Shown: positions 13,954 through 38,324 of the stretch, one piece after another
Numbering within the stretch: the first letter of the stretch is position 1
Layout of the letters: every line of letters begins with the position of its first letter
Assembly: GCA_003599145.1 (NCBI GenBank)
Contig: QZIT01000001.1
Span: forward strand, 3,831 to 67,830
Direction: 5' to 3'
DNA length: 64,000 nt
Origin: Candidatus Woesearchaeota archaeon
GTDB taxonomy: Archaea > Nanobdellota > Nanobdellia > Woesearchaeales > UBA9642
Notes under the pieces: generated by a model
What the model was told of the DNA's origin: nothing
Database searches by the model: none
Seen by the model: only the letters and a program-made list of their open reading frames with translations
Position numbers and translations under genes: made by a program

Positions 13954-14121
13954 ATACAAATGTCATACAAATCATGTCATTTTCTTAACAAAACGATATA
14001 TTTATAAAGCGCTGTTTTCATTGATAAAAGAAGAGATGCTGGTAACTCCCGTATAAAAGGGCTAAAAACAAGCAAAAAAAGAAAATACAACATACAAATA
14101 ACTTACTTAACGCATACAAAT
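13954..14121 (+). repeat. Direct repeats ATACAAAT (four copies plus ATACAAC)
   Basis: Copies at 13954, 13965, 14092 and 14114, partial copy at 14085, around the promoter of the RHH pair. Confidence 0.5.
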
Positions 14122-14122
14122 A

Positions 14123-14290: not shown

Positions 14291-14558
14291 AAAGGAAGTC
14301 ATGGTAAGCATCAGAATGCCCTCTTCGCTAGTTGCACAGCTCAAAGAGCTTGCAGTAAAGAAGCATTTTCTTGACATGGGAGAGCAATTGCGATCGCTCG
14401 TAAGAGAAAAATGCATGCAGCATCTCGACCCCTATTCTGGGGAAATGAAGAAATTCAGAGAAGAACTCAAACAGGAATTACTGCATAAAACGTCTGAAAA
14501 AAATGTTCTCATAAAAGACTTGAAAAGAATTGTGGAGGAGCTCAGCAATGAAAAATAA
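14274..14558 (+). CDS. Ribbon-helix-helix protein with C-terminal coiled coil
   Basis: MVSIRMPSSLVAQLKELAVKKHFLDMGEQLRSLVRE. Alternative start at 14301. Confidence 0.75.
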   Translation: MSTNSRKEVMVSIRMPSSLVAQLKELAVKKHFLDMGEQLRSLVREKCMQHLDPYSGEMKKFREELKQELLHKTSEKNVLIKDLKRIVEELSNEK

Positions 14559-17574: not shown

Positions 17575-20500
17575 ATGAAAAAAACTCAAAAAACAAGAGT
17601 ACATAGCGTTTTGGATAGTGTTACTGCTCTTCAAAAAAAAAGGAAGCATGTTTACTTTTTTCTTATTGCACTTTCAATCATCTTTTCTGTCGTAGGAATT
17701 TTGCTCATAAAAAACTATCTTGGCTATGCATCATTTGCAGGAGAAGGAGGCAATGTTTATGAGCTGGATATCTATTTTGAACAGGATGCAACGTATTGGG
17801 CAGGCCTTTACGGCGTTGCACTGCGCTTTGACGGATGGAATGTTCCCTGGTCAAAAGTAGTGTACGGCAACAGCATAGACTTGGGTGTTTTTTTGTTTGA
17901 CTGTATGCAAGTCAACTTAGACCATGAGCTTTACGCTTCGCTGGTTAATGCGTCAGAAATTGACTGGTCAACCATACAGGGAGCAAGCCCTGAAGATATC
18001 AATGCCTTTCTTAACCTAAGCGATACTGACGTATATTCTGCACTGAACATGTTTACCAGCGAAATCAATGTCTCCATAGGAAATACGTCATTAATCATCA
18101 ATGCAACATTCACGAATGTCTATAATCAGACCAATGCGACTGTTTATGATGTTGGATTGCTCAAAGACGGCAATGGAACGCTTGTTTTTGTATCTCATAT
18201 AACAGACAACGCGACGTTTTGTTATTATGGGGGTATCTGCAATTATCAAATGCTCTTGCCTATCAGAAACGGAACCAATGAAACCTATCATTTTTTTACA
18301 GACCCGTATGACCAATGCCTTCCGGGAGAAATACCTGTTCCCTTAGAATATACGTTTGTCAACGGAACTGTATCGAACACCGACGGAATGAATATGAGCG
18401 GGGTCTTGGTTGTTATAGGAAATTATGCAACCTACACCGACAGCACAGGATTCTACAATTTTACGCTTCCTATAGGGGATTACCATGTTTTTGCAGTTGC
18501 AGATGGATATAAAACATACCACAACGTTCTCAACCTTACCACTCCTAACGTTACCACAGTGCACAATATACTGTTAAGTATCCAGCTAACGGGAAAAAAC
18601 GACAACCCAGGAAAAAAATCAGAGGACACTCCCAAGGAAAAGCCACAACAGCCTCAAATAGAACAGCCCTCGGTCATCAGAGAGATAGGATTTATCATCT
18701 CTATTGCTGAAATCAACCGAAAAATAAAGCAGGGCAACTTTATTCAGGAATTCATTTCCTTTGTCAGCGTTGTAGAGTATCCCTTAGACCTCTATTTCAC
18801 CATCAGCGGCCCTGTAGCTGAAATAATACAGCTTGATGAAAAGCACTTCACCATCGAAAAGGCACTGAAAAAAACACTCACCATGACCATATTCGGCAAA
18901 GGAGAGCCTAGAGTGCTGACTGGATTTTTGAATATTACAGGAACGTTTCAGCATGAAATTCCCATCACTATTGAAATTATCGATAAAGACATGCTGCCGG
19001 TAGAGGCCTTGCTTATTGACGTTCAGCCATTGAAGAATAAAGTTCTTGAACAGGAGCAGTTCAGGTTCAAAACTAATTTGAAAAACCTATTAATCGATGA
19101 GCAGTACCCCGTAACGATTCATTATTCAATCCAGAATTTAAATGGCTCAACAACCTATTGGACTGCAGAGGAAAATATATACTTACTTACCTCTGCATCT
19201 ATCATCAAATCAGTTAAATTACCAAAAGAAATGAAGCCAGGAGAATACGTACTGAGAGTTACTGCTTATTACCTCGATTTATCAACAAGCGACAGTGCAG
19301 TGTTTATTGTAGAAAGGCCGTTCTATCAGTATAAAATATTTGGCATACCTTTATGGATATACGGATTATTTTTAGTTGTACTCATCGGACTTTGGATACT
19401 TTGGAAAAATTTGAAGAAAGCAATGGATCATGGGAAGAAATACAGAATGGTTCTTGATTACAGCGAAATACCGAAAGACGGCCCTAGAGGATTATACGTA
19501 GGGAACATTGCAGAAACAAAGCGAAAAACGTACTTTGACATGGATAATCTGAAAACCCACACCATCATTGCAGGCTCCACAGGCTCTGGAAAGTCATTTA
19601 CCGCACAGGTTATTGCTGAAGAAGCGCTTGACAAGAATGTTGCCGTCATCATCTTTGATCCGACAGCACAGTGGACAGGCATGCTTCGCAAATGCCAGGA
19701 TAGATCCATCATCAAAACCTATGGCCAATTTGATATGCAGCAGAAAGACATCAAGGCATTCAGCGGCAGCCTTAAAATGGTGACCAATGCCTATGAAGAA
19801 ATCAACATTGCAAAATATACCAAGCCAGGAGAAATTCAGATATTTGTCATGAACAATCTTGAGCCTGAAGACATCGAAATTTTTGTGAGCAATACCGTAA
19901 GGGAAATTTTCAAGGAAAAGCTTACGGAAAGCAAAGAGCTAAAATTGCTTTTGGTTTATGACGAAGTGCACCGGCTGCTGCCTAAATTTGGAGGAACAGG
20001 CATAGGATTTTTGCAGATAGAACGGGCTATTCGAGAGTTTAGAAAGTGGGGTGTCGGGTTGTTGCTTATTTCTCACGTGCTAAACGATTTTGTTGAGCAG
20101 ATACAGGCAAATATCAACACCCAAGTCCAGATGAAAACAAGAGATGAAAGCGATCTTGAAAGAATAAGGATGAAATATGGCCAGAACATTTTCAGGTCAA
20201 TGGTAAAAACAAAAGTAGGAACAGGACTGGTTGAAAATTCAGATTACAACAAAGGAGAGCCTTACTTTGTCGATTTTAGGCCTATCAAACACTCTTTAAC
20301 CAGATTATCAGAAGAGGAAATAAAGAAATACCATAATTACCAGTTAAAGGTTGACCAAATAAGCTATGAAATCGAGCAGCTTGAGGAGCTGAAGCACGAC
20401 GTATTTAACCTTAATTTGACTTTGAAATTGCTTACTAAAAAATTAAAAGAAGGAAATTTCTATGTCGTGGACATTTATCTCGATGAAATTTCTGCAGAAT

Positions 20501-20946
20501 TGGAAAAAGCGTGGCAGTCTTTGAGAAAGAAGCCAAAGAAACTGGAAATAAAGCTGATAGATAAAAAGGAAATTGAGAATGAAATAAAAAAAGCAAGGGC
20601 GGAAAGGGAAACGGCAACGGCTAAACTGGAAAAAAGCAAGCAGCCAAAAATAGAAGATGCGTTTGCAAAAGAAGTCTCTTTGGATAAGGCGCTCAATATG
20701 GACAACGGTGCAACGATTCTGAGCCTGCAGGAATTGCTTGATGTCTTAAAAGGCATAACTCCGTTGGTTTTCAAAAAGCATGTCAATGAAGAGAAGAACG
20801 ACCTTGCAAACTGGGTGAAAAGAAACCTGCAAAACGAAGAGCTTGCAAAAAAACTAGAACCTTGCAAAGCATCAGCTGACATGATTAAAGTTCTAGAGGA
20901 CTATAAAGCAACGGTTTCCTATTTTAAGGATGAGAAGAAAAAATGA
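17575..20946 (+). CDS. Membrane-spanning HerA/FtsK/VirB4-superfamily (DUF87-like) ATPase with large extracellular region and C-terminal DUF5752-like domain
   Basis: N-terminal TM, sequon-rich beta domains, second TM, HTIIAGSTGSGKS, IIFDPT, LLVYDEVHR, REFRKWGVGL, coiled coil, then HVNEEKNDLANWV. Confidence 0.85.
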   Translation: MKKTQKTRVHSVLDSVTALQKKRKHVYFFLIALSIIFSVVGILLIKNYLGYASFAGEGGNVYELDIYFEQDATYWAGLYGVALRFDGWNVPWSKVVYGNSIDLGVFLFDCMQVNLDHELYASLVNASEIDWSTIQGASPEDINAFLNLSDTDVYSALNMFTSEINVSIGNTSLIINATFTNVYNQTNATVYDVGLLKDGNGTLVFVSHITDNATFCYYGGICNYQMLLPIRNGTNETYHFFTDPYDQCLPGEIPVPLEYTFVNGTVSNTDGMNMSGVLVVIGNYATYTDSTGFYNFTLPIGDYHVFAVADGYKTYHNVLNLTTPNVTTVHNILLSIQLTGKNDNPGKKSEDTPKEKPQQPQIEQPSVIREIGFIISIAEINRKIKQGNFIQEFISFVSVVEYPLDLYFTISGPVAEIIQLDEKHFTIEKALKKTLTMTIFGKGEPRVLTGFLNITGTFQHEIPITIEIIDKDMLPVEALLIDVQPLKNKVLEQEQFRFKTNLKNLLIDEQYPVTIHYSIQNLNGSTTYWTAEENIYLLTSASIIKSVKLPKEMKPGEYVLRVTAYYLDLSTSDSAVFIVERPFYQYKIFGIPLWIYGLFLVVLIGLWILWKNLKKAMDHGKKYRMVLDYSEIPKDGPRGLYVGNIAETKRKTYFDMDNLKTHTIIAGSTGSGKSFTAQVIAEEALDKNVAVIIFDPTAQWTGMLRKCQDRSIIKTYGQFDMQQKDIKAFSGSLKMVTNAYEEINIAKYTKPGEIQIFVMNNLEPEDIEIFVSNTVREIFKEKLTESKELKLLLVYDEVHRLLPKFGGTGIGFLQIERAIREFRKWGVGLLLISHVLNDFVEQIQANINTQVQMKTRDESDLERIRMKYGQNIFRSMVKTKVGTGLVENSDYNKGEPYFVDFRPIKHSLTRLSEEEIKKYHNYQLKVDQISYEIEQLEELKHDVFNLNLTLKLLTKKLKEGNFYVVDIYLDEISAELEKAWQSLRKKPKKLEIKLIDKKEIENEIKKARAERETATAKLEKSKQPKIEDAFAKEVSLDKALNMDNGATILSLQELLDVLKGITPLVFKKHVNEEKNDLANWVKRNLQNEELAKKLEPCKASADMIKVLEDYKATVSYFKDEKKK

Positions 20947-21299
20947 AGAAGCAGAAAAAAAGCAGTGGAAAAAGCAAGGAAAAAATCTCTAAAGCAAAAA
21001 GGAAAAAAGAAAAAAATATAAGCGAAAAACAAATACAAGATTGTCAGGAACAATTCATAACTTTAAAAGAAAAAACGACGCTGTTAAGAAAATCAGGAAA
21101 AAATACCTTTACTGCAGATATGCTCTTGAAAGCATTAAAAGCTAAAGTAAGGCTCCTCAAAGCGTATGACACAGAAAAAGAGTTTGCAGAAGTCAAAAAG
21201 CTTTTAAACAAAGCAGCATCTGAAGTCATGGCTATAGAAAAAGAAAAAAATACAGATATTGCAAAAGAGGTGAGGGCTGTACGCAATGAGCCTTTTTAA
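20943..21299 (+). CDS. Lysine-rich helical hypothetical protein
   Basis: 118-aa ORF overlapping both neighbours. Confidence 0.65.
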   Translation: MKKQKKSSGKSKEKISKAKRKKEKNISEKQIQDCQEQFITLKEKTTLLRKSGKNTFTADMLLKALKAKVRLLKAYDTEKEFAEVKKLLNKAASEVMAIEKEKNTDIAKEVRAVRNEPF

Positions 21300-22614
21300 G
21301 AAAAAAGAGGAAGAGGAAAAAGAGGACGAGCCTTTGCAGATTGATGTAAAGGGCGATGCCAATGTTCAGGTGGCAAAACTCTCTGCAAAAGTCGAATCAC
21401 TCTTAGATATCCGAAAAGCATATTCTGAAAAGTTCCAGATGCTCAGCGAGCAGTTTGGAGAATTGCGAGGCATGCTGCTCGACACTTCAAAGCAAGTGCA
21501 GCAGATTGAAATGAAATCAACCAAAGCCATCAGCATGGTTGAAGAAGTAGAGCCTGATAAATTAATGAGCCAAGTGAGAAAACAGGAAGAAAAAAACGAG
21601 CAGTTAAAAGCAAATCTGGAAAGCAACGAATCAGTCATGCATGACATCATGGAGGAGATTAAAAAAATCAGAAACCAGATGTCCTTTTATCGAGGAGTCG
21701 AACAGGTAACCAAATTAAATGACGAAATCAAGAAAGACCTTATCGACATTAAAAAGATACAGACCAATGTCGAGCGCCATTCTGACAAAGTAGAATCAAT
21801 CTTTATTGAACTGCAGAAAAAATACGCAGAGCTTGATGCCTATGCGTCTGTTTTGGATGATGTCAAGAAAACCATGAAGGAAGTGCTCACCAATTTTGAC
21901 AAGCTTTCCCTGCAGATGAAGGAAAAAATTGAAAAAAAAGAGCTCGTGGAGATTTCCAATAAGCTTGACCGTGCGCTTTTGTTGAGCAAGCAGGAAAGAA
22001 TAAAGCAGATTCTTGACCAGCTTGAGATATACCGAAAAGAGTCAAATGCCAGTGCAGAGGGATTGAAATTTTTGAAAGATAAGCTTGACGGAATCGAAAG
22101 CATCTTTAAAACCATGGGCATACAGCAGATGGCCCTACAGGTTAAAAATCTTGATAAGAAAGTAGACTTGATCAATGTCGATGTTACTGCAAACAAGGAA
22201 ATACTTTCAAAGTTAAGCAGGCTGGAGAGTCAATATGAAACCGTAACTAAGGTGCTCAAGCAAAATCAGGAATTACAAAAACAGGTACAGGAAGTTTTGG
22301 GCAAAAAGACACTCTTTAAAACAAAGGAAAAACAGGCAACGGATATTCTTGCGTCTGTGAAGGAAACCTCTGACAAAATCAACAAGGACCTTGCAGAGTT
22401 CAAGTCTTTCAAAAAATCATCTGAAGCAGAAACGACTGCTTTGCGCAATCAAGTAGCCATACTTTCAAAGAAACTCAATGTTGCAGAAGCAAAGAAAGGA
22501 GCCCATCAGCTTATTGATTTAAGAGCCAATCTAGGAGATTTACAGCAATCGTTCAGAAAGAACTCTGGAACGAGAAAGAGTGCTGCACAGCGTTCGAAAA
22601 AGAAAAGGCGGTAA
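21286..22614 (+). CDS. Long coiled-coil protein
   Basis: Heptad-rich over about 400 aa, GAGGTGA SD, N-terminal EKFQMLSEQFGELR motif. Confidence 0.75.
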   Translation: MSLFKKKEEEEKEDEPLQIDVKGDANVQVAKLSAKVESLLDIRKAYSEKFQMLSEQFGELRGMLLDTSKQVQQIEMKSTKAISMVEEVEPDKLMSQVRKQEEKNEQLKANLESNESVMHDIMEEIKKIRNQMSFYRGVEQVTKLNDEIKKDLIDIKKIQTNVERHSDKVESIFIELQKKYAELDAYASVLDDVKKTMKEVLTNFDKLSLQMKEKIEKKELVEISNKLDRALLLSKQERIKQILDQLEIYRKESNASAEGLKFLKDKLDGIESIFKTMGIQQMALQVKNLDKKVDLINVDVTANKEILSKLSRLESQYETVTKVLKQNQELQKQVQEVLGKKTLFKTKEKQATDILASVKETSDKINKDLAEFKSFKKSSEAETTALRNQVAILSKKLNVAEAKKGAHQLIDLRANLGDLQQSFRKNSGTRKSAAQRSKKKRR

Positions 22615-22631
22615 GTGCAGATAACCGCCCA

Positions 22632-24419
22632 TTAGGACTTCCAATAATTCTTCTTCAATAGCGTAAAATCTTCATCAATAAAAAATACCGTTCTTTGTTG
22701 AGTGTATTCAAGCGATGCTTGCATCATCGCACAACTTCGAACATCATAGTACGGAGTATTATATATTTTTTCCTCGCATAGTTTCTCAGCGGACACGGTG
22801 AATGCCATCAACAAAATTATTGAGAAAATAAAAAGGAATTCAAGAAAGAATATTGTTTTTTCATTTGATTTTACCATGGCTATGAATCCAGCAGTGCTAA
22901 AAACCAAGCAAATAACCAAAAGGAAAGGTGTGCTGAAGAAAAATAAAGTGATGAAACCGCAGGCAAAAAGAATAAGCCCACAAATTATTTTTCCCTTCTT
23001 CAATCCAAATAAGGTGAACAGCGTATGAATATTGTTTTGTTTATCTCCTTCAAAATCCTTTGCGTCTTTCATCATTGAACCGAAGGTAAAAAAGATCAGC
23101 GCAAATGCAAGAATATTTATCGGAAACAATATCATGGCAAATTCCTGAAACAAAATTGAGAATCCCGCCATTAAAACAGCAGCATGAGCTAATCCAATGA
23201 GAATGTTGGGGATAAGGAAATACCTTCTTAACCTGAATGGCGGAGCTGAATATATTACTCCATAAACTAGCATAAAGAAAAATATGAATACGGTGATGAC
23301 GTACCCTGCCAGCAGACTAAAAAATAGGGCAATAATAAAGCAGGCAAGGGTAAGCAGTTTGTTTTCTTTTCCTGTTATGAATGCACTTGCCAATGGCCTA
23401 TGAGCATTGCTCACCTTGTCAATATCTCTATCATAATAATCATTTAAGCATACCGCGAAAAGCCAAGCAAAAAAGAGAGCTATCAGCAGGAAGAGCAATG
23501 AAAAGATATTCTGCATGGAAAAACTGCGCGCCATGCTCACGGCGATCAAGAAGCCAATGATACCTAAAAAACTGAAATGAATATGTCTTATAACGCTTAT
23601 GTTCTTATAAAACGCGATACTGATTTTCTTTAAGGAAAAGCGTTCAAGTTCTTTTTTTTCCTTCCTCAATTTTTCTTTTTTTAATAAGAATATCCACAAC
23701 AACACCAACAAAGAAACTAACAAGCCATGGATAATGATCATTGAGCCATCAAAAGGCAACATGATGCCTAACCTTCTTAAGAGAGGAATAAAGCGGGGAG
23801 TAATAAAATAGAAAAAAATAGTTGAGTAAACAATAAGAGGCGCTATAGCGGCTTTCCAAATAGATTTTGTTTTTACAAATACATAAAGTATGCTAAACAT
23901 ACAGGCAAGGAGAATTTCAATTTTAATGCCTATGGTTGCTGGCCCTTGCAAACTAAATAAATTCATAAAAGAGAAATACTGAAAATGAAACTGACCAGAA
24001 ATATAAGCCATAGAGATTCCTTTTCCTGCAGATATAATAAAATCTATAATAGGAGGCAACAGGGTTATTGCCCAAAGAAAGGTAACTGCTTTGGCAACCT
24101 TTAAGAGCCGTTCTTTTGAAAGCAGAGCTATGAAAATGCACAACGTTAGAAAAATAGGTATCCAAAATAGAAAATACTCTATCCGCTGGAATGGAGGATA
24201 GACAGGAAGTAACGGCTGCATGAAATTTTCCAAATAGTCTCGCAAAAGCATTATGGAAAACAACGAAACCACCCATAAGAACAGAGATGCTTTTATTTTT
24301 TCGATAGCGGCTATCCTCTCAGCGCACCACAACATCACTTTCTTTGTTTGCTTGAACAGCAAGGTAACAAGCAAAGGTATGCCTAAAATAAGACTAAAAA
24401 ACAAAAATTCGCTGGCCAT
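22632..24419 (-). CDS. UbiA-family prenyltransferase with extra N-terminal multi-TM domain
   Basis: LNDYYDRDID...HRPL, YSAPPFRLR, KDAKDFEGD. Confidence 0.85.
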   Translation of the reverse strand: MASEFLFFSLILGIPLLVTLLFKQTKKVMLWCAERIAAIEKIKASLFLWVVSLFSIMLLRDYLENFMQPLLPVYPPFQRIEYFLFWIPIFLTLCIFIALLSKERLLKVAKAVTFLWAITLLPPIIDFIISAGKGISMAYISGQFHFQYFSFMNLFSLQGPATIGIKIEILLACMFSILYVFVKTKSIWKAAIAPLIVYSTIFFYFITPRFIPLLRRLGIMLPFDGSMIIIHGLLVSLLVLLWIFLLKKEKLRKEKKELERFSLKKISIAFYKNISVIRHIHFSFLGIIGFLIAVSMARSFSMQNIFSLLFLLIALFFAWLFAVCLNDYYDRDIDKVSNAHRPLASAFITGKENKLLTLACFIIALFFSLLAGYVITVFIFFFMLVYGVIYSAPPFRLRRYFLIPNILIGLAHAAVLMAGFSILFQEFAMILFPINILAFALIFFTFGSMMKDAKDFEGDKQNNIHTLFTLFGLKKGKIICGLILFACGFITLFFFSTPFLLVICLVFSTAGFIAMVKSNEKTIFFLEFLFIFSIILLMAFTVSAEKLCEEKIYNTPYYDVRSCAMMQASLEYTQQRTVFFIDEDFTLLKKNYWKS

Positions 24420-24604
24420 AAACGTATAAGTGCGAAAAAGTATATATACTTTTCTCTTAAAAACAGTATAACCTTAAAAAAGTATAATATTATATTATAA
24501 ATAATATAATTCTAAACTACAGATTTAAGTTCTCAAAAACAGAAACCTTTATAAATCCATTACCCATATAAAGATATAACATTATATTAAAAAAGATATA
24601 ACAA

Positions 24605-25102
24605 ATGATCATTAACGCCATTGATAAAGAGATACTGGCATTCTTAAGTAAACACACGGTTATAGGCTGTTCTATTAACCAGATTGCCCTTGCATTGCAT
24701 AAAGCATATCCCCATATCAACGCAAAGGTTAACGTTTTACTGCAAGAACGCATCTTGAAAAAAAACATTATTGGCAAGTCGCACGTTTGTTTTTTGAATT
24801 TGCGCAACCCCATAACCAGATATGCCTTAGCCATTATTGAAACAGAAAAGGCGCGCGTTTTTCTTAGCAAGCATAGCGAGATTAAAAAAACAATCAAGCA
24901 GGTAATAAAAGAGCATACGCTGCAAACAATTTTTGCATTGCCTGAGAGTGTTTACATGGTTACTGATGAAACTTTTTTTCATAAAAAGATAAAAAACGTA
25001 AGCAAATCTGAATTAGTCCAAATAACTATGAAACATAAAGATATAACCGTACTCTATAAACCTGAAAATTATTATAGTATTTTGAAAAAAACACAAACAT
25101 GA
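24605..25102 (+). CDS. wHTH protein (possibly HTH plus degenerate nucleotidyltransferase)
   Basis: SINQIALALHKAYPHINAKVNVLLQERIL...IGKSHVC. Its stop overlaps the start of the giant gene. Confidence 0.65.
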   Translation: MIINAIDKEILAFLSKHTVIGCSINQIALALHKAYPHINAKVNVLLQERILKKNIIGKSHVCFLNLRNPITRYALAIIETEKARVFLSKHSEIKKTIKQVIKEHTLQTIFALPESVYMVTDETFFHKKIKNVSKSELVQITMKHKDITVLYKPENYYSILKKTQT

Positions 25103-28100
25103 ACGCATTAAAAAGGGTATTACTCGGGTTTTGGTTAATCTTATTAGTTCTTCCACTAACTTCAGGGCTGACGCTTAACACGCACAACCTTATTTTAGGA
25201 GAAACACTGGAAATTAACATAACAGACCAAACAAATAACAGAATAACCATCTCTAACGGCGAAGATATCTATGTCTATCAAGGATCTCCTGAAATTATAA
25301 AATTCGTTCCTAAAAAAACAGGAGATTATAAAATTGCAATGAGTGATGCTCTTACGAACGCCGCAATCGAACAGGAAGAATTCACGGTTTCCTCTGCACC
25401 ATTGCAACCTGAAGTTATACTTTTTGACAAGCCAGCATATACTTCAGGAGATAAAGTCATTATTTCCTTCAACTCAGATCAAGAAGAATTAAAAGTCACC
25501 ATCAGCTCATCAACTGATTTTTACCAGTTTTTAGGAACGGTTCATGAGTCTATAGAATTTGTTCCGAATAAAGCAGACGTCTACACAGTAAATGCATACG
25601 CACAAGATCAAGTAATAGGCACAGCGACGTTTTACGTTGCTACCAAGACAAAACATACAACTGAAACAATTATCGATTACTCTGCGCTCAGTGATAAAGA
25701 CTTAGAAAGACAGCTCAGGGATTTTTTTCCTGCGGTGACCTTTAAAGGGGTTTTGAAAAATGAACAGGGTGCTTTTCCCACATTCGATTTAACCATTGCA
25801 TCAGATGATGCAAAAGCGCAGGCAACATTAAAAGGGGTTAAAGATATTAATCAATTAACGCAGATAGATATCATTAAAGAAGCAAATGCTGATAAGTCGC
25901 AATACAACATTGTTGGAGACATAGTCGCTGTGAACGCTATAGCTTTAGAGTCTGCAACAATACAGCTTTCAAAAGAAGGAGCCGTTACAGGAGTCTTAGA
26001 GTGCGATGATTTTATTTTCGGAACTAATAAATGCAAGAATTGGCAGGTTAGCTCAACGCCGTTTATTGATTACGGAACTTATGTTATTTTTACCGTGCAC
26101 CATTTTAGTGCATACACTATATGGTATAACTTCACAACAAACTTGACAAACCGTGCCTATAAAGGCGCAGACATCACTAACCCGCCTCATGCAAATCCTT
26201 CATCATGGTTCAATGCCAGCACTGCATTAACCAGTGCAGAGTATACAGCAATAAATATAAGCGACGACAACAGAGCCAATGTTTCCTACTTCACTAACGG
26301 AACAGGATGGAACATCCACATGTTTGAGTTCAAGATAAATCAAAGTGCTTCTTTAATCAATTCCATCATGCTTTATTGGGAAGGATATGGCAGCAAAAAC
26401 AATGAAACAGACGCAAACAACAACATTTCCATGTTTCTGTACAACTTTTCACAAAACAATTGGACTGCAAATTTAAATACATCCTGTCTGGCAGGAGCGT
26501 GCAATAGTACCACAAGCGAAAAAAACATTTCATATAACCTTACGACAAGCATCTCTGATTTCATAAACAGTTCAGGATATTTAAGATTTATCATAACAGA
26601 GTATGATAACGTTACTGCTGCAAGCGAAGGGGGAGCAGTATGCGGTAACGGCGTCGTTGAAGGCACTGAAGAATGTGATTACACGTCAACTGATTGTGCA
26701 TCTCCTTCTGCTCAGAAGTGCTCCACTGGAGCTACATGTCCAGACCCTCCTGCTTGTTCTGGAAGAGGGTTATATTTACAATGCCAAACTGATTGCACGT
26801 ACTACTGCGGTAGCTGCATAGCTATATGCCCATTTATCTATTCTTGGGATGGCTCTCAGTATTTCTATGATAACGTTATTTTGCAACAGATAGAAACAAA
26901 AGAAAAGGAAACCTTGCAAATAAAACCGTTTAATTTTCCGTTACTGGTCAACGATTCTTACATAGTGCAGATTAGAGAGTATAAGCCTGAAACAAGCTAT
27001 TTTGACACGTTTTATGTAATTATCAACGACAGCTATGAAAATGAAACCACAACTACAGAAATAAAGCCAGCTTCTGAAACATACAATATCGCTGCGCTTT
27101 TGTACGAAGACGGAGAGTATCTAAAAATAGAATACGGAGAAATCGTCCCTATTGTTTTTAGACCCATTCCTCCTTTAAAGCAAGGTTACAAAAGAGAAGT
27201 ATTTTTTGCCGCAAAAGGATACTATGAATTTTATAATGATTTGGATAAGCAATATTATGACCTCCGCAACGGCATTTGCTACCTGCCTTCGCAAAAGGAA
27301 AAAATACAGGTGGTAAGCACAACCTGCGGTCCTCCTCCAGAAGAAGTAAGAACGGAAATAACAGTCCATAATACGCTCTATACTGACCAGGCAAAAGTTT
27401 TTGTTGCGTATAATAATTCTCCTCCAACACACTCAACTCCCGTTATAACGCCAACAGACCCCCTAACAGAAGAAAACTTTACCTGTTATAACCAATCAAC
27501 AAGTGATATTGATGGAAATACCGTAAGCAATATTTATGCATGGACAGTCAATGGTGCACCGCTAATGCTTCTTTACTTGCCACTTGACAGCAACGTTACC
27601 AATACCACAACAGGAGCAGTTAAAGACTACTCAACCTTAAATAATAACGGAACATTAGGACCAAATACAGAAACTCCACTATGGAACAGTTCAGGAATCA
27701 TAAGAGGGGATTACTATTTTGACGGAGGAGACTACATTAACATAAGTGATCAATCGTATTTCAGCCCGAATGAAACAAGAAACATGACCATTTCTGCTTG
27801 GATTAATATTCCTTCAGGTGCTTCAGCAAGCACAAGTGGAGGATGTGGTGGCACTGGAAGATACTTCCTTACCAAAGCAGGAGCTTCAAACTGGGAATGG
27901 GGATTTGAAAATGACAACAATAATCTTCTATGCTTTTGCCTATGGAGAGCAAGTGATGGCGCAACCTATGGATGTGGTTCATCTTCAAGAACCATGAATG
28001 ATGCCACTTGGCACATGTACACGGCAACTATAAACTACGGGTCCTATATGACTCTTTACGTTGACGGAGTAAACACGACAACAGTGTCATCATTCACAAA

Positions 28101-31100
28101 CTCGATGAGCAATGGCAACTTCCCCATTCAAATAGGAAAGAGAGGCGATGGAAATTACTTTATCGGTTCTGTTGATGATATCAGAATATACAATAGAAGC
28201 CTTACACCAAATCAAGTAAAACAGATGTACAATGAAACTGCACTTGGAAAAACAGACAACAGTACCATAACTGACTTAGAAACAATTACAGGAGAAAATT
28301 GGACTTGTTTCGTAACACCAAACGATGGATATGAAGACGGCTTAACAAAAAATACATCTGTTGTTATCACGGCAACCAACACTGCTCCATCCGTGAGCAC
28401 TCCCTATATACTTCCTATAACTCCAACTGCTTCAACAACAACACTCAACTGTTCAGTTATCCCTACAGATGCTGAACAAACAAGCTTGACTTTAAACTTT
28501 TCATGGTACAACGGAACAACAGTGTACAATTCAACACAGTACACCGTAGCAAACAATTCAAATTTTACCATGAATGTTTCTGTAGTTTTAAGAGCCCTGG
28601 AAGTTTGGAACTGCACTGTTTTTGCAAATGATGGAACAGATTCAGGAAATAGTAATAGCACCACCGTAACCGTTGTCAACGCAGAACCAACGCAAGATAC
28701 TCCAACAATTCTGCCTGCAAGCCCTGACGCACTTACGAACTTTACCTGCTATAATCAATCGACAACAGACGCAGATGGACATACGGTAACCAACATCTAT
28801 AATTGGCTTGTAAACAATGTTTCCATTACCGTATTGCATCTTCCTTTTGATACTAATGTAACGTCAACAGCAACGGGTGCAGTAAAGGACTATTCAGGAT
28901 ATAACAATAATGCAACGCTAGAAGGCGGAACAGAAACTCCAACGTACACCACCAACGGAAAAATTGGAGGCGCATATAACTTCAGTAGCGACCATATTAA
29001 CGTAACAGACCATGCAAGCATAGATACCACAACGGCATTTACTGTAGAGCTTTGGGCGTATCCTTCAACAACTGCAGCCGGAAGCTATGACATCATAGGA
29101 AAATATGCATGGGTAGCAGGCCAAGGGCTCTATCAAGTAAGGCAAAGTGGAACAAGCTTAGTTGTTTATGTAATTAACGGCGCCAGCACGAATACTGTAA
29201 CTGCAACAAGCTTTTTTACTGCAAACACTTGGCATCATATAGCAATATCCTTTAACAGTTCAAATGTGACTATTTACAAGAATGGAACCTGGGCAGCAAA
29301 TACAGACCCCACATTAGCGTTTTTACAAACAAATACACCTTTAATCATAGGAGCAAGAGCAGATACTGCAAGCGCAAATTATTTTTCTGGTGTATTGGAC
29401 AACATAAGAATATATAATAGAAGCCTTACTGGAAACCAAATAGCCGCATTGTATGCCGCAACGTCTGCAGGAAAAACAGACAACAGTACGATAACTGACT
29501 TAGAAACAAACAGCAGTGAAAACTGGACCTGCTTGGTAACGCCAAACGATGGAGCTGTTGATGGAATCATGAAAAACACCAGCGTACTTCTGCAAGAAGC
29601 TGCTGCTGACGAATGCGCTCCAAGTGGAGCATGGAATGTTACTTCTCTTATCAGCTGTTCTGACACAACAATTAGTGTAACCAGCATCAACATATCAACA
29701 GCAGGATACTTGAATCTCACCAGAGTCAATTTAACAACAGGAATAACCGAAGTTTTTGGAAACTTTACATCAAGAGACAGCCCCACAACCATATGGCAAA
29801 ATGGCAACCTCACCATTTATGGAATATATGGCTTAGATAACACAACACTGCGCATGAATGGAACAACTGACGGCATGTATGGCATCGTAGTCAATGACAG
29901 TGCATCCATGACTATCAACAACAGTGCGAATATTACTCGAGGTTCAACGAGCACGTTTAATTATTTCTTCAAAGTTAATACGGGCAGTACGTTTGTCATG
30001 AAAAATTCTATTTTAGAATATGCAGGTTGGTCTTCCACCATAAATCAAAGAGGATTAGAGATAAATACCACAGTTACGCAATTTCATAACAACACGATTT
30101 TAAATAATTTTTATGGGGCGGCTTTTTATGCGAATAATAGCATGATACGAGATAACAATATCACGAGAAACGTTATTGGGATGTACTTGGACTATTCCCA
30201 TAACAATTCTATAGTAAGCAATAATCTTTCAGGAAACAGCAATAGTGGAGCGACTCTTTATCTTGCCTATGGTCTTTTTTTAAACAGTGCAAACGCGAAT
30301 ACCATTACAAACAATGACCTATCAAATATCAGAACAAGTGTAGGCGCATTGCCAAGTCCTGCATATGGAATTTATATGATTAACAGCGAGAACAATACTG
30401 TTTCACAGGGAACATTCAACAACATTACTGGTCTTCAAGATGCTTCCAGCGATGTAGCTTCCTATGCAATATATCTTGCAACTTCAAATAACAATAACTT
30501 TTCAGCAAACAAAATATGGCAGGGCCATATCGGATACTATCTCGATGGATCAAACAGCACCGTAATTGACGGAACTTCAATAGCTAACACAACCTTTGAA
30601 GCTATTTATTTAAGGAATACTAAGAACAGCATAATAAGAAATATAGTGATGGAAAATGCATCTTACGCAGGAGATAGTACAACCACTCCTGGCGCTGCAG
30701 GAGTTTACCTCCAAGGCAGCTCTTCAAACAACATAACAAACATAACCATCAGAAAAAACATTTTGGGAATGCGGTTTGGAAGTTACGGAACTAGCTATTC
30801 AAATACAAACAGAGTGATGAATTCAACAATTTTTAACAACACCAAGGGGATTTATGCAGAATTTGGAAATGCAAATTATTTTATTGACTCTGTGGTTAAC
30901 TTTTCAGCTCAAGATGATATCTACTTTAAAAATGGAACATCTACAGCTCCCGCAAACATCACCTTTATCAATGTAACACACAGAAAGGGAAATATAACAT
31001 TCAACACAACAAACTGCCAGAATGCCGCAACACCATTCTGCCAGTTAAACGTGTACTGGTATTTGAATGTTCAAGTCAATGAAAGCGCAACAGGAATCAA

Positions 31101-34100
31101 TCAAGCATTGGACCAGGCAACGGTAACGGCAACCAATGTCAGCGGGATACAAACCTTCAGCACATTGACTAATTCTACAGGATGGATAACGCGGCAAAAT
31201 GTTTCAGAATATTGGCAGAATGCAACGTTAGCCAGCTATCAGACTAATTATACGATTAACGCAACAAAAACGTTTTACAAGAAAAACAGCACTGCATTGA
31301 ATATCACTTCTTCAACCATCATGTACTTAAGCTTGCAAAGAGATACGCCTTATATAACGCAACTGAACATAACTCCGACAAGAGCATACAACAACGACAC
31401 CTTAAATTGCAGTGTTACCGCTGTTCATGACACGCTAACAAACTTGAACATCTCCATCACTTGGTATAATCTTTCAGGAGGTAGCTATGTTTATTATAAT
31501 AATACAAATATCAGTACAACCAACAATACGCAAGTAAGCTGGTTGCTGGATAGCAGCGTAACCTGGAAAGGAGAAACGTGGAACTGCACGGTAATTGCAA
31601 ATGATGGAACGTGGAATTCTACAAGGAACTCAACAACACAGTATATCTATAATCTTGAGCCGCAACATACAACACCAATCATTCTTCCTGCAAGCGTCAA
31701 TAATGACACCAACTTTACTTGCATAAATCAGTCAACCATCGATCTTGACAGTTCAAGTGTGGTAAACATCTACAATTGGCTGGTTAACGGAACACCCATT
31801 ATGGTGTTAAACATGCCTTTTGAAACAAACACTTCAAGTTCTGCAAGCGGAGCAATAAAAGATTATTCTGGTTACGACAATAATGGAACATTATCCAGCA
31901 GTACTGGACCAACATGGATAGCAGGAAAAATTGGAGGAGCATATGACTTTGATGGAGCTGATGATTCTATGAGCATTCCTAACTCCATATCATTAAACTC
32001 TACAAAAAACATCACCATAGCGTTCTGGATAAAGCCAAAAACATTCACAGAGCCAAACCCATATATTCTCTATAAAGGCGCAAGCGACCTGAACGCAGTT
32101 GAGTATCTTGTAAGATTTTCCAGCTCAAAAATGGTTTTCATATTTTATAATCAGAGTGGATTTTCAACCGTCCAAGTAGCGTCTACAAGCACCTTGGCAA
32201 CAAACACCTTTTATTTTGTAGCAGCGACGTACAATGGCTCAAATTTGAGCATCTATATTAATGGAACACTGCAAAACAGCACTCTGAGTAATGTCACGAT
32301 AAGGACAAACGCAAACACGATAGACGTAGGATATATATCAACAGTCTGCGCAGATACTTGTTACGCAAACATGACTCTCGACGAGCTTAAAATATTCAAC
32401 AGAAGTTTAACCGCCAATCAAATATGGCAAATGTACTTAGAGGGAAACAACAGCATAGGAAATAGTACGATAACTGATTTAGAAACAAATACGGGTGATA
32501 ACTGGACGTGTGAGGTAATTCCCAATGACCAGGAAGATGATGGCACAACAAAAGACGTTTCTGTGATTATTGCTGCATCAAACATAGCCCCATCTGTATC
32601 TGCGATAACCATCAATTCAACTGATGGAACAAATGTGACAACACAAGACCTTCATTGCAATGCAACCATAACAGACCCTGAAGGCACAGCGTTGAATGTG
32701 TCTGTACAATGGTATAAAAATGGCGTTGTAAATTATTCTCAAGATTACAATAACAGTTATAGCAATGGAACTATGTTTAACGCAACCCTTGGTTCAGGAA
32801 ACACCACCAAAGGAGATATTTGGTTTTGCAGTTTTAGGGCATCTGATGGAAGCCTTACCAGCGATTGGATAAACTCTTCTAATCTAACGATACTCAACAG
32901 CAATCCTATCATGATAACCAGTAGAATAAATCCTTCTCCGACAGCGCTTGACAGCGATACGCTTTCAGGATACTGCAATGCAACTGATGCAGACAATGAC
33001 AGCGTTGTTTATTACTGGCAGTGGTGGAAAAACAGCGTGCTTGATTCAAGCGGGAATGGAAACTTTTCAACATCGCTTTGTTATCAGGAAACAGCAACCA
33101 CCAGTACTGCCTGCGGAGGGTTATCTACTGGAACCTATCTATGCTCAGGCGATTGGGATGGCACTCAAACTTGTGCGTTAGTCTATGATGGAAGTTGGGC
33201 AACATACGGAACAGCAACGTCAAACGATCCTGGTGCAACACTCTACATTAATTACACAAAGCCAACAAATGCTATTTCAACAAGTTTATGGGAGATAAAA
33301 GACAATAGCGCGCAAACAAATCTTAGCATGAGTGCTAGCTGCTGGAGTCAGAGCATACTGCAGCTATCTGCAGGCGTTGGAAGCAGCATTCACCAAGAAT
33401 GGAGCTGCTATACAGGCTCTGGATGGACTGCGATTCGTGCACTCAGTGGAGCAGGAACCTATAGGGCCTATGAAGAAGCCATGTGGTGGAACATATCATT
33501 TTATCATGCACAAGGAATAGAAGCATTGGTATCCAATGTTTCCGACAGTTTAACAAGTGCAGGAGATTCATGGATTTTTTCATGCTTGGCAGATGATGCA
33601 ACAGCAAATAGTTCATGGATGAACAGCACGGCAACAACCATTAATGAGAGCACAACCTACGACTTTGAAGTCAACAGCACCAATATCACGTTCAGCACCA
33701 ATAATCCTGTAGAAAATGAAGTTATGACGCTTTTCGCAACCGTCTATAATCTGGGAAATACGAATGCAACCAATGTCACGATTCAATTTTTTGATGGCGA
33801 TCAGGAAAACGGAACTCAAGTAAACGGCAATATTACCAGAAACATTTCAGCTGGGAGCTATGTTACCGTAAATGTTTCCTGGACAGTAACTCAAGGAACG
33901 CATAATTTCTATGCGCTTGCAGACCCTCCTTATGGAACTGGCAGTTTTTCTGAAACAGCTGAAACCAACAACATTGCCAACAAAACACTCACCGTATCAA
34001 TCTGGCAAGTCTATTATGGCCTTATGAACACCACTGTATTTCTAGCAACTTCACAAAATATATCGCTGCAGAAATGGTGGGCTGCAAATGTTACTGGAAA

Positions 34101-34575
34101 CATTTACGTTTCAGATACAGACACAACCAACGGAGTTTCATTCACTACCCTACAGGCTATTTACAGAAACACATCAAACATGACCAACGCCAACACCCAG
34201 AACGACTTTGAAAATATTGACGCTAATTTGGAAACAACTAACTATAGCGATAGCGTCAACGCAACCTTCACGGTAAGCGGAGCTCCTGCAGCAACAAAAA
34301 CTATCAACAGCTATAACAAAAACATTGCAAATATCTCTGTTGTTAACAGCACAAATACCTCTTCATTTATCACAGGCATCTTATGGGATACTTCTGACTC
34401 AAGCAATGACTATTATGACACTGGCGAGAAGGAAGATCTCATATTTATCACTGAAATAAACATGTCCAAACAAGGGCAGTACGGAACCTATGATTACGAA
34501 ATCAAAATACCTGCAAATTTAAGGTCATATAAAGGCAGTGATGCAAGCGTAGTGTTTTATTACGAGATAAACTGA
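25099..34575 (+). CDS. Giant (3158 aa) secreted modular adhesin-like protein: Cys-rich repeat, three LamG, beta-helix (NosD/PbH1), disulfide Ig repeats, CARDB, conserved C-terminal domain
   Basis: Signal peptide; VHHFSAY; CGNGVVEGTEECD; LamG motifs (TISAWI, WHM/WHH, DDIRIYNRSLT); Asn-rich beta-helix; CARDB (ATVYNLG...ETNNIA); very dense NxS/T sequons; no C-terminal TM. Confidence 0.88.
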   Translation: MNALKRVLLGFWLILLVLPLTSGLTLNTHNLILGETLEINITDQTNNRITISNGEDIYVYQGSPEIIKFVPKKTGDYKIAMSDALTNAAIEQEEFTVSSAPLQPEVILFDKPAYTSGDKVIISFNSDQEELKVTISSSTDFYQFLGTVHESIEFVPNKADVYTVNAYAQDQVIGTATFYVATKTKHTTETIIDYSALSDKDLERQLRDFFPAVTFKGVLKNEQGAFPTFDLTIASDDAKAQATLKGVKDINQLTQIDIIKEANADKSQYNIVGDIVAVNAIALESATIQLSKEGAVTGVLECDDFIFGTNKCKNWQVSSTPFIDYGTYVIFTVHHFSAYTIWYNFTTNLTNRAYKGADITNPPHANPSSWFNASTALTSAEYTAINISDDNRANVSYFTNGTGWNIHMFEFKINQSASLINSIMLYWEGYGSKNNETDANNNISMFLYNFSQNNWTANLNTSCLAGACNSTTSEKNISYNLTTSISDFINSSGYLRFIITEYDNVTAASEGGAVCGNGVVEGTEECDYTSTDCASPSAQKCSTGATCPDPPACSGRGLYLQCQTDCTYYCGSCIAICPFIYSWDGSQYFYDNVILQQIETKEKETLQIKPFNFPLLVNDSYIVQIREYKPETSYFDTFYVIINDSYENETTTTEIKPASETYNIAALLYEDGEYLKIEYGEIVPIVFRPIPPLKQGYKREVFFAAKGYYEFYNDLDKQYYDLRNGICYLPSQKEKIQVVSTTCGPPPEEVRTEITVHNTLYTDQAKVFVAYNNSPPTHSTPVITPTDPLTEENFTCYNQSTSDIDGNTVSNIYAWTVNGAPLMLLYLPLDSNVTNTTTGAVKDYSTLNNNGTLGPNTETPLWNSSGIIRGDYYFDGGDYINISDQSYFSPNETRNMTISAWINIPSGASASTSGGCGGTGRYFLTKAGASNWEWGFENDNNNLLCFCLWRASDGATYGCGSSSRTMNDATWHMYTATINYGSYMTLYVDGVNTTTVSSFTNSMSNGNFPIQIGKRGDGNYFIGSVDDIRIYNRSLTPNQVKQMYNETALGKTDNSTITDLETITGENWTCFVTPNDGYEDGLTKNTSVVITATNTAPSVSTPYILPITPTASTTTLNCSVIPTDAEQTSLTLNFSWYNGTTVYNSTQYTVANNSNFTMNVSVVLRALEVWNCTVFANDGTDSGNSNSTTVTVVNAEPTQDTPTILPASPDALTNFTCYNQSTTDADGHTVTNIYNWLVNNVSITVLHLPFDTNVTSTATGAVKDYSGYNNNATLEGGTETPTYTTNGKIGGAYNFSSDHINVTDHASIDTTTAFTVELWAYPSTTAAGSYDIIGKYAWVAGQGLYQVRQSGTSLVVYVINGASTNTVTATSFFTANTWHHIAISFNSSNVTIYKNGTWAANTDPTLAFLQTNTPLIIGARADTASANYFSGVLDNIRIYNRSLTGNQIAALYAATSAGKTDNSTITDLETNSSENWTCLVTPNDGAVDGIMKNTSVLLQEAAADECAPSGAWNVTSLISCSDTTISVTSINISTAGYLNLTRVNLTTGITEVFGNFTSRDSPTTIWQNGNLTIYGIYGLDNTTLRMNGTTDGMYGIVVNDSASMTINNSANITRGSTSTFNYFFKVNTGSTFVMKNSILEYAGWSSTINQRGLEINTTVTQFHNNTILNNFYGAAFYANNSMIRDNNITRNVIGMYLDYSHNNSIVSNNLSGNSNSGATLYLAYGLFLNSANANTITNNDLSNIRTSVGALPSPAYGIYMINSENNTVSQGTFNNITGLQDASSDVASYAIYLATSNNNNFSANKIWQGHIGYYLDGSNSTVIDGTSIANTTFEAIYLRNTKNSIIRNIVMENASYAGDSTTTPGAAGVYLQGSSSNNITNITIRKNILGMRFGSYGTSYSNTNRVMNSTIFNNTKGIYAEFGNANYFIDSVVNFSAQDDIYFKNGTSTAPANITFINVTHRKGNITFNTTNCQNAATPFCQLNVYWYLNVQVNESATGINQALDQATVTATNVSGIQTFSTLTNSTGWITRQNVSEYWQNATLASYQTNYTINATKTFYKKNSTALNITSSTIMYLSLQRDTPYITQLNITPTRAYNNDTLNCSVTAVHDTLTNLNISITWYNLSGGSYVYYNNTNISTTNNTQVSWLLDSSVTWKGETWNCTVIANDGTWNSTRNSTTQYIYNLEPQHTTPIILPASVNNDTNFTCINQSTIDLDSSSVVNIYNWLVNGTPIMVLNMPFETNTSSSASGAIKDYSGYDNNGTLSSSTGPTWIAGKIGGAYDFDGADDSMSIPNSISLNSTKNITIAFWIKPKTFTEPNPYILYKGASDLNAVEYLVRFSSSKMVFIFYNQSGFSTVQVASTSTLATNTFYFVAATYNGSNLSIYINGTLQNSTLSNVTIRTNANTIDVGYISTVCADTCYANMTLDELKIFNRSLTANQIWQMYLEGNNSIGNSTITDLETNTGDNWTCEVIPNDQEDDGTTKDVSVIIAASNIAPSVSAITINSTDGTNVTTQDLHCNATITDPEGTALNVSVQWYKNGVVNYSQDYNNSYSNGTMFNATLGSGNTTKGDIWFCSFRASDGSLTSDWINSSNLTILNSNPIMITSRINPSPTALDSDTLSGYCNATDADNDSVVYYWQWWKNSVLDSSGNGNFSTSLCYQETATTSTACGGLSTGTYLCSGDWDGTQTCALVYDGSWATYGTATSNDPGATLYINYTKPTNAISTSLWEIKDNSAQTNLSMSASCWSQSILQLSAGVGSSIHQEWSCYTGSGWTAIRALSGAGTYRAYEEAMWWNISFYHAQGIEALVSNVSDSLTSAGDSWIFSCLADDATANSSWMNSTATTINESTTYDFEVNSTNITFSTNNPVENEVMTLFATVYNLGNTNATNVTIQFFDGDQENGTQVNGNITRNISAGSYVTVNVSWTVTQGTHNFYALADPPYGTGSFSETAETNNIANKTLTVSIWQVYYGLMNTTVFLATSQNISLQKWWAANVTGNIYVSDTDTTNGVSFTTLQAIYRNTSNMTNANTQNDFENIDANLETTNYSDSVNATFTVSGAPAATKTINSYNKNIANISVVNSTNTSSFITGILWDTSDSSNDYYDTGEKEDLIFITEINMSKQGQYGTYDYEIKIPANLRSYKGSDASVVFYYEIN

Positions 34576-37781: not shown

Positions 37782-38324
37782 TACCACAAGCACATTCCAG
37801 AACATAGACAAATGCAAAAAGTACAGCAACGCAAAAAGCGGCGCGCTGAGCCATAGTGGCAAACCTCTCGATTCTTTGGTGGCAAGCTCTTTTCCCCATT
37901 TCAGCGCAGCGGCAAGCATAAAAACGACAAGAGGGAACAAAAACCAGCTGTTTTGAAAAGCCTTAAACAACAATAACGCTGGAGCTACAGCGAAAGCAAC
38001 AATGCTGGCCAAAGCTCTCAACGCGCTTCCAAAAAAGGATTCCTGATGGAATATACTGAGTATTTTGCCATCAAGAAAATCGCAGACAAATGCAAACAAC
38101 AGAAATGCAAGCGCATAGTTAAAAATCTTTTCTGCACTGAAGAGCACGCTTAAAAACCCTGTGCCAAGGGTAAGAAAGGTTATAAAATCAGTGAGGGATA
38201 TTATTTTTTGAGGAGTGGAGCTGTGTTTCTTGATATTGTGCGCTATCCTGCTTTCTTGGCTATTTTTCATTCTAGTGGTTATGCTCGCTGTTTCATTTTT
38301 CCGTTTATTTTCTTGTTTGGCCAT
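37740..38324 (-). CDS. CDP-alcohol phosphatidyltransferase (PssA-like) with degenerate active site
   Basis: DFITFL, DFLDG...SFFG..L...IVAFAVAPA. Directly downstream of psd. Confidence 0.7.
   Translation of the reverse strand: MAKQENKRKNETASITTRMKNSQESRIAHNIKKHSSTPQKIISLTDFITFLTLGTGFLSVLFSAEKIFNYALAFLLFAFVCDFLDGKILSIFHQESFFGSALRALASIVAFAVAPALLLFKAFQNSWFLFPLVVFMLAAALKWGKELATKESRGLPLWLSAPLFALLYFLHLSMFWNVLVVLAFSYLLLARLKR

Follow-up and report, generated by a model that had tools for sequence, protein, structure and literature searches.

A shared extracellular domain in a membrane ATPase, giant secreted proteins and stand-alone subunits of one DPANN order, with a predicted mode of docking by strand donation

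A 64,000-nucleotide (nt) window from contig QZIT01000001.1 (C3) of the Candidatus Woesearchaeota archaeon assembly GCA_003599145.1 (source genome G000) encodes a two-transmembrane (two-TM) ATPase, P0001, and a giant secreted protein, P0002, which by comparison of family profiles carry homologous copies of one extracellular domain of ~190 residues. The domain occurs in three forms, as a copy in the ectodomain of two-TM ATPases, as a copy at the C-terminus of giant proteins and as secreted stand-alone subunits, and on the reach of profile searches it defines a large unannotated protein family in one order of DPANN archaea. A short N-terminal strand accompanies the ATPase and stand-alone copies and is lacking from the giant copy, and in a structural model of one pair this strand docks a subunit onto the giant domain. 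We put at about even the chance that the three forms assemble head to tail by strand donation, in which case the ATPase would anchor the base, subunits would form the stalk and a giant the cap. The source genome comprises 1.31 Mb in 6 contigs and is 97% complete, and close homologues of the window proteins carry the source labels Woesearchaeota or Nanoarchaeota. The features of the window on which the analysis turns are as follows.

17575..20946, forward strand: two-TM membrane ATPase assigned to the HerA/FtsK superfamily, P0001, 1123 amino acids (aa); Pfam and PDB matches, TM segments
17653..17709, forward strand: ATPase TM1, residues 27-45; hydropathy 2.79, with 8 K/R in the 26 residues before it
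17734..18312, forward strand: shared domain, ATPase copy, residues 54-246; hhalign to the stand-alone and giant families
17746..17772, forward strand: donor-type N-terminal strand GGNVYELDI, ATPase residues 58-66; aligned to AGNVTELNI of the stand-alone family
18358..18570, forward strand: CarboxypepD_reg-like beta-sandwich, ATPase residues 262-332, after the shared domain; PF13620, 38.2 bits (cut-off 32.3)
19345..19401, forward strand: ATPase TM2, residues 591-609; hydropathy 2.45
19495..20166, forward strand: P-loop ATPase core in the cytoplasm, residues 641-864; motifs GSTGSGKS (Walker A, 667-674) and LLLVYDE (Walker B-like, 791-797)
25099..34575, forward strand: giant secreted protein, P0002, 3158 aa; signal peptide, three Laminin_G_3 domains, 174 N-glycosylation sequons
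33997..34572, forward strand: shared domain, giant copy, residues 2967-3158, lacking the donor strand and ending at the last residue; hhalign to the stand-alone family
33994..34092, forward strand: predicted acceptor region of the giant copy, domain-construct residues 12-44, including the first strand WQVYYG...; complex-model interface

A sequence-only reading of the window had proposed that the same ~190-aa domain caps the ATPase ectodomain and ends the giant protein, at positions that match those listed above (17734-18312 and 33997-34572). Pairwise comparison of the two segments is marginal: a Smith-Waterman score of 61 stands against 42.8 ± 7.3 for shuffled sequences and is reached by 9/500 of them, a semi-global score of 50 stands against 24.6 ± 8.3 and is reached by 4/500, and BLASTP of the ATPase segment against the giant segment returned only short non-colinear matches (best E 0.20). 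Family profiles bear the proposal out. One profile was built from 10 ATPases with the same ectodomain, picked from 548 candidates, and the other from 61 giant proteins (1755-5392 aa) with the same C-terminal segment, out of 1488 candidates. The two align with an hhalign probability of 96.7-96.9% (E 2e-10 to 4.7e-10, 119 columns), and the profile check that the sequence-only reading had called for is thus significant. Because six reversed-profile controls gave probabilities of at most 1.4% (E of at least 0.038), the similarity is not the product of chance, and a compositional artefact is ruled out as its source. A third profile, of 73 stand-alone proteins (A1), aligns with the ATPase copy at 99.4% (E 2.2e-21, 178 columns) and with the giant copy at 98.9% (E 2e-17, 170 columns). 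The seven colinear motif pairs first noticed between the two segments stand in part: pairs 2-6 align directly between ATPase and giant, and pairs 1 (YWAGLYG / IWQVYYG) and 7 (TYHFFTD / VVFYYEI) are recovered only via the stand-alone family.

Stand-alone copies with signal peptides had been predicted to lie elsewhere in the genome, and they were found there as five tandem secreted proteins of ~245 aa. In a search of all 5623 stop-to-stop open reading frames (ORFs) of at least 60 aa, hidden Markov models (HMMs) of the ATPase and giant copies match the same five ORFs (241-266 aa) at the start of contig C2 (C2:328-5894), with E-values of 2.9e-16 to 2.1e-8 and 3e-12 to 1e-4 respectively; the next-best matches in the genome lie at E 0.29 and 0.71. 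Each ORF begins with a hydrophobic signal segment, continues with a conserved stretch, which has the AGNVTEL form in two of the five paralogues and the (A/S)GGTITT form in three, and then runs into the domain, ending ...YYF(W/F)xE(L/I) at 1-3 residues ahead of the stop codon. Signal peptides and cleavage sites of the stand-alone proteins were judged by eye rather than with a predictor.

The family reaches well beyond the source genome. A search with one stand-alone subunit returned 69 proteins of 232-384 aa, none with a functional name, and the A1 profile matched 1468 of 1.84 billion cluster representatives at E ≤0.001, 1071 at ≤1e-10 and 504 at ≤1e-30. Genomes carry 4-8 paralogous subunits. 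Among the best 150 representatives, 23 are larger proteins (468-2359 aa) with a full subunit, including its donor strand, at the C-terminus; the Pfam domains upstream of it in the 15 of these that were scanned include beta-helix/NosD, Laminin_G_3 and Ig-like domains. Four proteins of 600-785 aa (P0177, P0208, P0213 and P0235) have such a C-terminal full subunit after a weak match to the Nup98-96 S59 autopeptidase, which scores 31.0 bits in P0177 against a cut-off of 28.4 and falls below the cut-off in the other three. Self-cleavage in these proteins could free the donor end.

The ATPase presents its copy on the outside of the cell. Between TM1 and TM2 lies an ectodomain of ~550 residues with 3.27 N-glycosylation sequons per 100 residues, as against 0.20 past TM2, which argues that the stretch between the TM segments is extracellular. 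Two TM segments flank the ectodomain in 10/10 homologues, and Walker A is present in 9/10, the remaining one being a truncated record of 709 aa. From its Pfam scores (DUF87, PF01935, 49.6 bits with a cut-off of 23.2; HerA_C, PF05872, 35 bits with a cut-off of 22) and its matches to PDB HerA chains (E 1.8e-7), the ATPase part is placed among the P-loop ATPases of the HerA/FtsK superfamily. It lies below the cut-off of every named model searched, whether CedD (41.7 vs 600), the HerA models (21-33 vs 800-970), TraD (26.5 vs 366, NCBIfam) or TrwB_AAD_bind (18.4 vs 20.5, Pfam), and for this reason assignment to the HerA repair helicase, CedD or conjugative coupling proteins as named equivalogs was rejected. 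HerA-type ATPases are ring hexamers. The Walker A/B P-loop core and the order TM, loop, TM and cytoplasmic ATPase are shared with FtsK/HerA pumps including the type IV coupling proteins (TrwB/VirD4), from which P0001 differs in that its loop is a 550-aa ectodomain bearing the shared domain. In genome G039 a 487-aa protein (L014, contig C20, ~13202-14662) consists of an N-terminal TM segment and an ATPase-type copy, with the donor stretch GGGNVTAL, and has no ATPase part, which indicates that the role of a tethered copy is separable from the ATPase.

The giant protein is, as had been claimed, without a TM anchor: its sole hydrophobic segment is the N-terminal signal peptide. Its copy of the domain is positioned with little variation, the match ending at most 13 residues from the C-terminus in 61/61 giant homologues and the domain lying at most 2 residues from the C-terminus in 28/29 genome loci of giant type. 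In a sample of genomes of the order, giant-type copies were found in ORFs of 445-9107 aa. Just ahead of the domain in the window giant lie residues that, judged from sequence alone, form the last strand of a CARDB-like domain.

An extra N-terminal strand in the ATPase copy, absent from the giant copy, had been noticed in the window pair, and the difference holds as a family-wide rule. The strand occupies positions 56-63 of the stand-alone profile, which is matched from positions 51-55 in 10/10 ATPases, so that the strand is included in every one. A C-terminal match to the same profile was obtained for 29/61 giants, and in 27 of these 29 it begins at position 64 or later, after the strand; the other two begin at 55 and 59. 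In P0001 the GGNVYELDI strand starts 12 residues past TM1, and among the ORFs of the source genome the donor-strand motif has only 3 occurrences. No stretch of the stand-alone family is better conserved than the corresponding residues 52-60 of the stand-alone protein P0073 (AGNVTELNI), where mean identity to the commonest residue is 0.79, compared with 0.55 for the mature protein.

Searches of known families gave the domain no name. Pfam and NCBIfam on all domain copies yielded nothing above noise, Pfam on each of the 73 stand-alone members singly produced no consistent family (the commonest, Reprolysin_5, in 4/73 with a best E of 0.013), and the stand-alone profile against PDB sequences had a single match at E 1.5. 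The sequence-only reading had held that a known enzymatic or sugar-binding module would tell against it, and none was matched in Pfam, NCBIfam or PDB sequences. TasA/camelysin (Peptidase_M73) was rejected as a candidate identity, since 0/73 stand-alone members match that family at E ≤0.5, and so was a type IV pilin or archaellin, the sole hydrophobic segment of the stand-alone proteins being by eye a classical signal (for example ...AWA before VPYG). A C-terminal sorting domain, such as the type IX C-terminal domain or PGF-CTERM, does not fit a domain of ~190 aa that lacks a TM helix, makes up whole stand-alone proteins and is N-terminal in the ATPase.

The mature stand-alone part is beta-rich with short helices, and AlphaFold2 models it with confidence (predicted local distance difference test, pLDDT, 92.3; predicted template modelling score, pTM, 0.85), as it does the giant domain from 28 genome-derived sequences (pLDDT 84.5, pTM 0.82). 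Both models run through the same elements in the same order: a four-strand beta meander leads into short helices and more strands, and the domain closes with one short helix and one strand. Likeness to pilin, cannula, TasA or S-layer folds, which had been anticipated, did not emerge from structure searches: Foldseek against the PDB gave no credible match (best E 0.28 and 0.30), the BFVD viral library a best E of 0.06, and the ESM Atlas only Woesearchaeota hypothetical clusters, every other row having a TM-score of ≤0.25. The lack of matches is proof neither of a difference in fold nor of a new one.

Heterodimer modelling had been suggested as a means of probing strand exchange, and the pair to which it was applied, the mature stand-alone subunit (residues 25-244, alignment A1) with the giant domain (alignment A2 of giant-domain copies), passed. 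The interaction prediction score from aligned errors (ipSAE) was 0.71, 0.69 and 0.67, and the best of 3 controls reached 0.00. The pass mark used is reached by 58/80 solved complexes and by 2/110 mismatched pairs, and is approximate here owing to the custom alignments. Runs share at least 92% of contacts, and partner pLDDT is at least 74. Recall of a known structure by the predictor is an unlikely cause of the pass, because no like complex or fold is found among solved structures. In the model the extension of the subunit (residues 37-41 and 43-66) packs against the first strands (12-44) and last strands (174-203) of the giant domain. The pairs of lowest error, given as subunit:giant, are 55:16-19, 57:18-20, 59:20-22, 61:23-24, 62:24 and 64:26, which suggests that the donor strand (residues 55-64) and the first giant-domain strand (residues 16-26) pair in parallel register. 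Parallel pairing in cis would be impossible, as inferred from the sequence, because only four residues separate the donor from the first strand of its own domain. The complex model supports the binding of the subunit to the giant domain without demonstrating it.

The three forms tend to be encoded together. Their distribution was followed in 151 genomes evenly drawn from the order, with thresholds of E ≤1e-10 for the giant type, ≤1e-20 for the stand-alone family and ≤1e-6 for the ATPase type; the sampled genomes are related and not independent, and co-occurrence is therefore given as counts without a statistical test. The giant-type domain is present in 44 genomes, the stand-alone family in 53 and the ATPase-type copy in 41 (about 30 in ORFs of at least 700 aa). 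All three occur together in 33, giant and stand-alone forms in 40 and none in 92, with an ATPase-type match alone in two (G069 and G160). In a phylum sample the stand-alone family is present in 54/201 genomes, all of the same family or order as the source genome, in a sample for which the number of genomes from other orders is not established.

Gene order follows the same pattern. In G006 and G014 a homologue of P0003, the protein encoded upstream of the ATPase in the window, is followed on one strand by the ATPase, a coiled-coil protein, a small protein, one or two giants and the subunit array; the locus spans about 40 kb from ATPase to array, with two small helix-turn-helix (HTH)-like genes inside the array. 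The contig of G003 ends at the giant, and that of G008 starts within a giant and runs on into the array. In G102, a one-contig genome, and in G104, ATPase, giants and array again follow one another on a single contig and strand, the order being scored on the three domain-bearing forms.

Together, these observations are consistent with a molecular model in which the extension of one copy would lie alongside the first strand of the next as a beta-strand, in parallel orientation. Stand-alone subunits and the ATPase copy would be able both to donate and to accept a strand, and giants to accept only. The ATPase copy, as the sole membrane-fixed copy, would form the base and donate to a subunit; subunits would donate to one another to build a stalk; and the last subunit would donate to a giant. 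Because the giant can only accept a strand, it would cap the distal end, with its LamG and beta-helix domains facing a surface or the cell of a partner. All support for this scheme is computational: the analysis shows the homology, the three forms, their topology and their genomic linkage, and docking of the subunit to the giant is drawn from the complex model. We infer docking between subunits and between ATPase and subunit, polymerisation of the stalk, its polarity and the distal position of the giant, as well as any role for ATP hydrolysis.

Several points weigh against such an assembly. AlphaFold2 gives subunit residues 25-68 a pLDDT of 83-94 in the monomer, in the absence of a partner, and the extension may pack in cis in the free subunit. 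The N-terminal interface stretch of the giant domain is conserved at 0.42, compared with 0.54 for the whole domain. Covariation between the donor and first strands (208 sequences, effective number 160) is ambiguous, with a z of 4.1 for the parallel register (i, i+16) and 3.6 for the antiparallel one, and rests on residues 54 and 57 of the donor and 70 and 73 of the first strand; as both registers stand out and the signal tracks a subfamily split, it is not counted as evidence. Only the pair of subunit and giant domain was modelled, and the contacts along a chain are extrapolated from it. Structure searches gave no likeness in fold to any known fibre subunit. Subunits occur without a giant-type domain in 13/151 genomes and the reverse holds in 4/151. 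The array of the source genome sits at the end of contig C2, away from the giant. The fusion to an ATPase is left unexplained, since extracellular strand donation needs no ATP.

Among other readings, the one that survives best is that the module, by donating strands, assembles into a two-dimensional coat or closes into a ring. The subunits would then make up a surface layer, or else encircle the hexameric ATPase as a collar, and giant and ATPase would be inserted into that layer via their own copies. The contact in the pairwise model fits a chain, a ring and a lattice equally, and the ATPase copy has both donor and acceptor elements. The multiplicity of subunit paralogues in each genome would suit a coat, and a hexameric HerA-type ring would bring six ectodomain copies together. 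We regard such a coat or ring as unlikely.

A second reading, in which the domain is an envelope- or ligand-binding anchor akin to SLH or CWB2 that grips a glycan, a lipid or an S-layer component, and in which the copies do not bind each other, is improbable. It would account for the presence of the domain at the terminus of very different surface proteins, from the giant-type ORFs to the larger proteins that end in a full subunit, and the family is heavily sequon-rich. However, it explains neither stand-alone proteins consisting of the domain only nor the tight gene linkage; the domain matches no known binding module, the donor strand is systematically present or absent by protein class, and the complex model passes with controls at 0.00.

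It is very improbable that the domain serves as a C-terminal sorting or export signal read by the ATPase machine, in the manner of type IX substrates, with the ATPase powering export or surface attachment. The strictly C-terminal position in giants (61/61 and 28/29) and the linkage of a membrane ATPase in the same locus are what such a signal would predict, but giants and subunits have ordinary N-terminal signal peptides, the copy of the ATPase is itself extracellular, and the ~190-residue domain is the entire mature stand-alone protein. Equally slight is the chance that shared descent is all there is, with a structural spacer duplicated into three gene classes and no docking function, for although homology alone does not show interaction and a single pair was modelled in silico, co-occurrence and synteny extend across many genera, the donor strand is conserved and lost in a class-specific manner, and the complex model passed.

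An extended form of the strand-donation assembly gives the ATPase a part. In this form, which we consider rather doubtful, six ATPase ectodomain copies would nucleate a strand-linked stalk or tube ending in the giant adhesin, and the motor would move DNA, protein or force along or through it. If true, a motor-driven stalk or tube would be a new kind of archaeal apparatus for cell-to-cell contact or transfer, as for a DPANN symbiont on its host.

The closest precedent for the proposed polarity is found in the chaperone-usher type 1 and P pili (FimA/F/G, FimH), in which the N-terminal extension of one subunit completes or augments its neighbour and the tip adhesin consists of a binding region and, after it, a C-terminal pilin-type domain that has no extension of its own and only accepts. 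The polarity here would be the same, with giants lacking the strand (27/29) and subunits and base copy having it. The differences are that there is no detectable likeness in sequence or fold, no chaperone or usher and no outer membrane, that in the model the donor strand runs parallel to the edge strand with which it pairs, and that a membrane ATPase, into which a copy is fused, supplies the base.

Among archaea, the threads of Sulfolobus acidocaldarius (Saci_0406) are described, in the part of the paper available, as having a signal peptide of the signal-peptidase-I type, an N-terminal tail strand and heavy N-glycosylation, and as assembling by donor-strand complementation without type IV machinery; the role of a cap is proposed for a paralogue, and adhesin caps are treated in the same paper (PMC9715654). 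As far as that account goes, the present family is alike in type of signal peptide, N-terminal strand and glycosylation. It differs in belonging to another family and, by the searches made, another fold, and the threads have no known ATPase-fused anchor or giant adhesin cap within the text available. Thread assembly is seen there by electron cryo-microscopy, whereas the assembly proposed here is modelled only. From the partial accounts at hand, cannulae (CanA), TasA-like archaeal bundling pili and Tat-dependent bundling pili are also alike, as extracellular chaperone-free archaeal fibres built by strand donation. The Pam pili of candidate phyla radiation (CPR) bacteria are presented, in the accessible portion of a preprint, as a lineage-specific donor-strand-exchange fibre of an ultra-small episymbiont, implicated in host contact and found among hypothetical proteins (PMC13278184). 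By that portion they are bacterial Ig-like pilins with chaperone-usher-like assembly factors and without an ATPase-fused base, and no sequence relation to them was detected here. Strand-donating fibres are thus already known in bacteria, archaea and, according to the same preprint in so far as it is available, CPR bacteria (PMC13278184).

A literature search, covering titles and abstract openings, found no published description of the domain family or of an ATPase-anchored fibre. To our knowledge, no earlier fibre of this kind has a base subunit that is part of a membrane ATPase, and the assembly proposed here would, if true, be the first; it raises the question as to why an ATPase of the DNA-pump type should be fused to the base. 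DPANN archaea are tiny symbionts that need to hold host cells and draw material from them, and the molecular means by which they do so are largely obscure. Our results provide a testable parts list for one large DPANN order, drawn from 1468 cluster representatives all labelled hypothetical, and a family with a confident predicted structure and no detectable solved relative. The presence or absence of the strand offers a simple rule by which base, stalk and cap proteins may be predicted, and docking would explain how giant secreted proteins without a membrane anchor are retained by the cell. Nanotubes and filaments have been imaged by electron cryo-tomography in one DPANN co-culture, their proteins not being assigned in the part of the report available (PMC11329633).

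Three further genes of the window are conserved with the locus.

14530..17547, forward strand: conserved upstream neighbour P0003, 1005 aa, with a signal peptide, an Ig/PKD-like ectodomain, a TM segment at 811-829 and a cytoplasmic helical tail; Pfam PKD_4, weak Ig-like matches
21286..22614, forward strand: coiled-coil protein of 442 aa encoded after the ATPase; conserved, with homologues in the equivalent place of G003, G006 and G014 (E 1e-63 to 1e-64)
24605..25102, forward strand: small conserved protein, 165 aa, whose stop overlaps the start of the giant; homologues directly upstream of giants in G003, G006, G014 and G039

P0003 shows a sequon bias of 2.37 vs 0.57 per 100 residues, in G006 and G014 its homologues are the immediate upstream neighbours of the ATPase, and it may be a further component of the base. 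The 442-aa coiled-coil protein has only weak SMC-like coiled-coil matches, and family searches placed the 165-aa protein in no family.

A 595-aa UbiA-family prenyltransferase (22632-24419, reverse strand) lies between the coiled-coil gene and the giant operon and has no counterpart there in the relatives examined. Past the giant (35651-38324), lipid-related genes encode an LPG_synthase_TM-like protein and, on the reverse strand, a CDP-alcohol phosphatidyltransferase; in relatives they are not conserved with the locus. On contig C2, just past the subunit array, L004:5981-7693 encodes a 571-aa protein with a signal peptide, a C-terminal TM segment and a Cys-rich tail, conserved in G039; its weak matches to the archaellum-stator proteins ArlF/ArlG (E 3.8e-4 and 1.8e-3) lie far below the cut-offs. 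Inside the array, two small conserved genes (L004:2462-2911 and L004:3874-4422) are kept in relatives, the 183-aa product of one being ArsR/Lrs14-like, and these, together with the gene at 24605-25102 of the window, are likely regulators of the locus.

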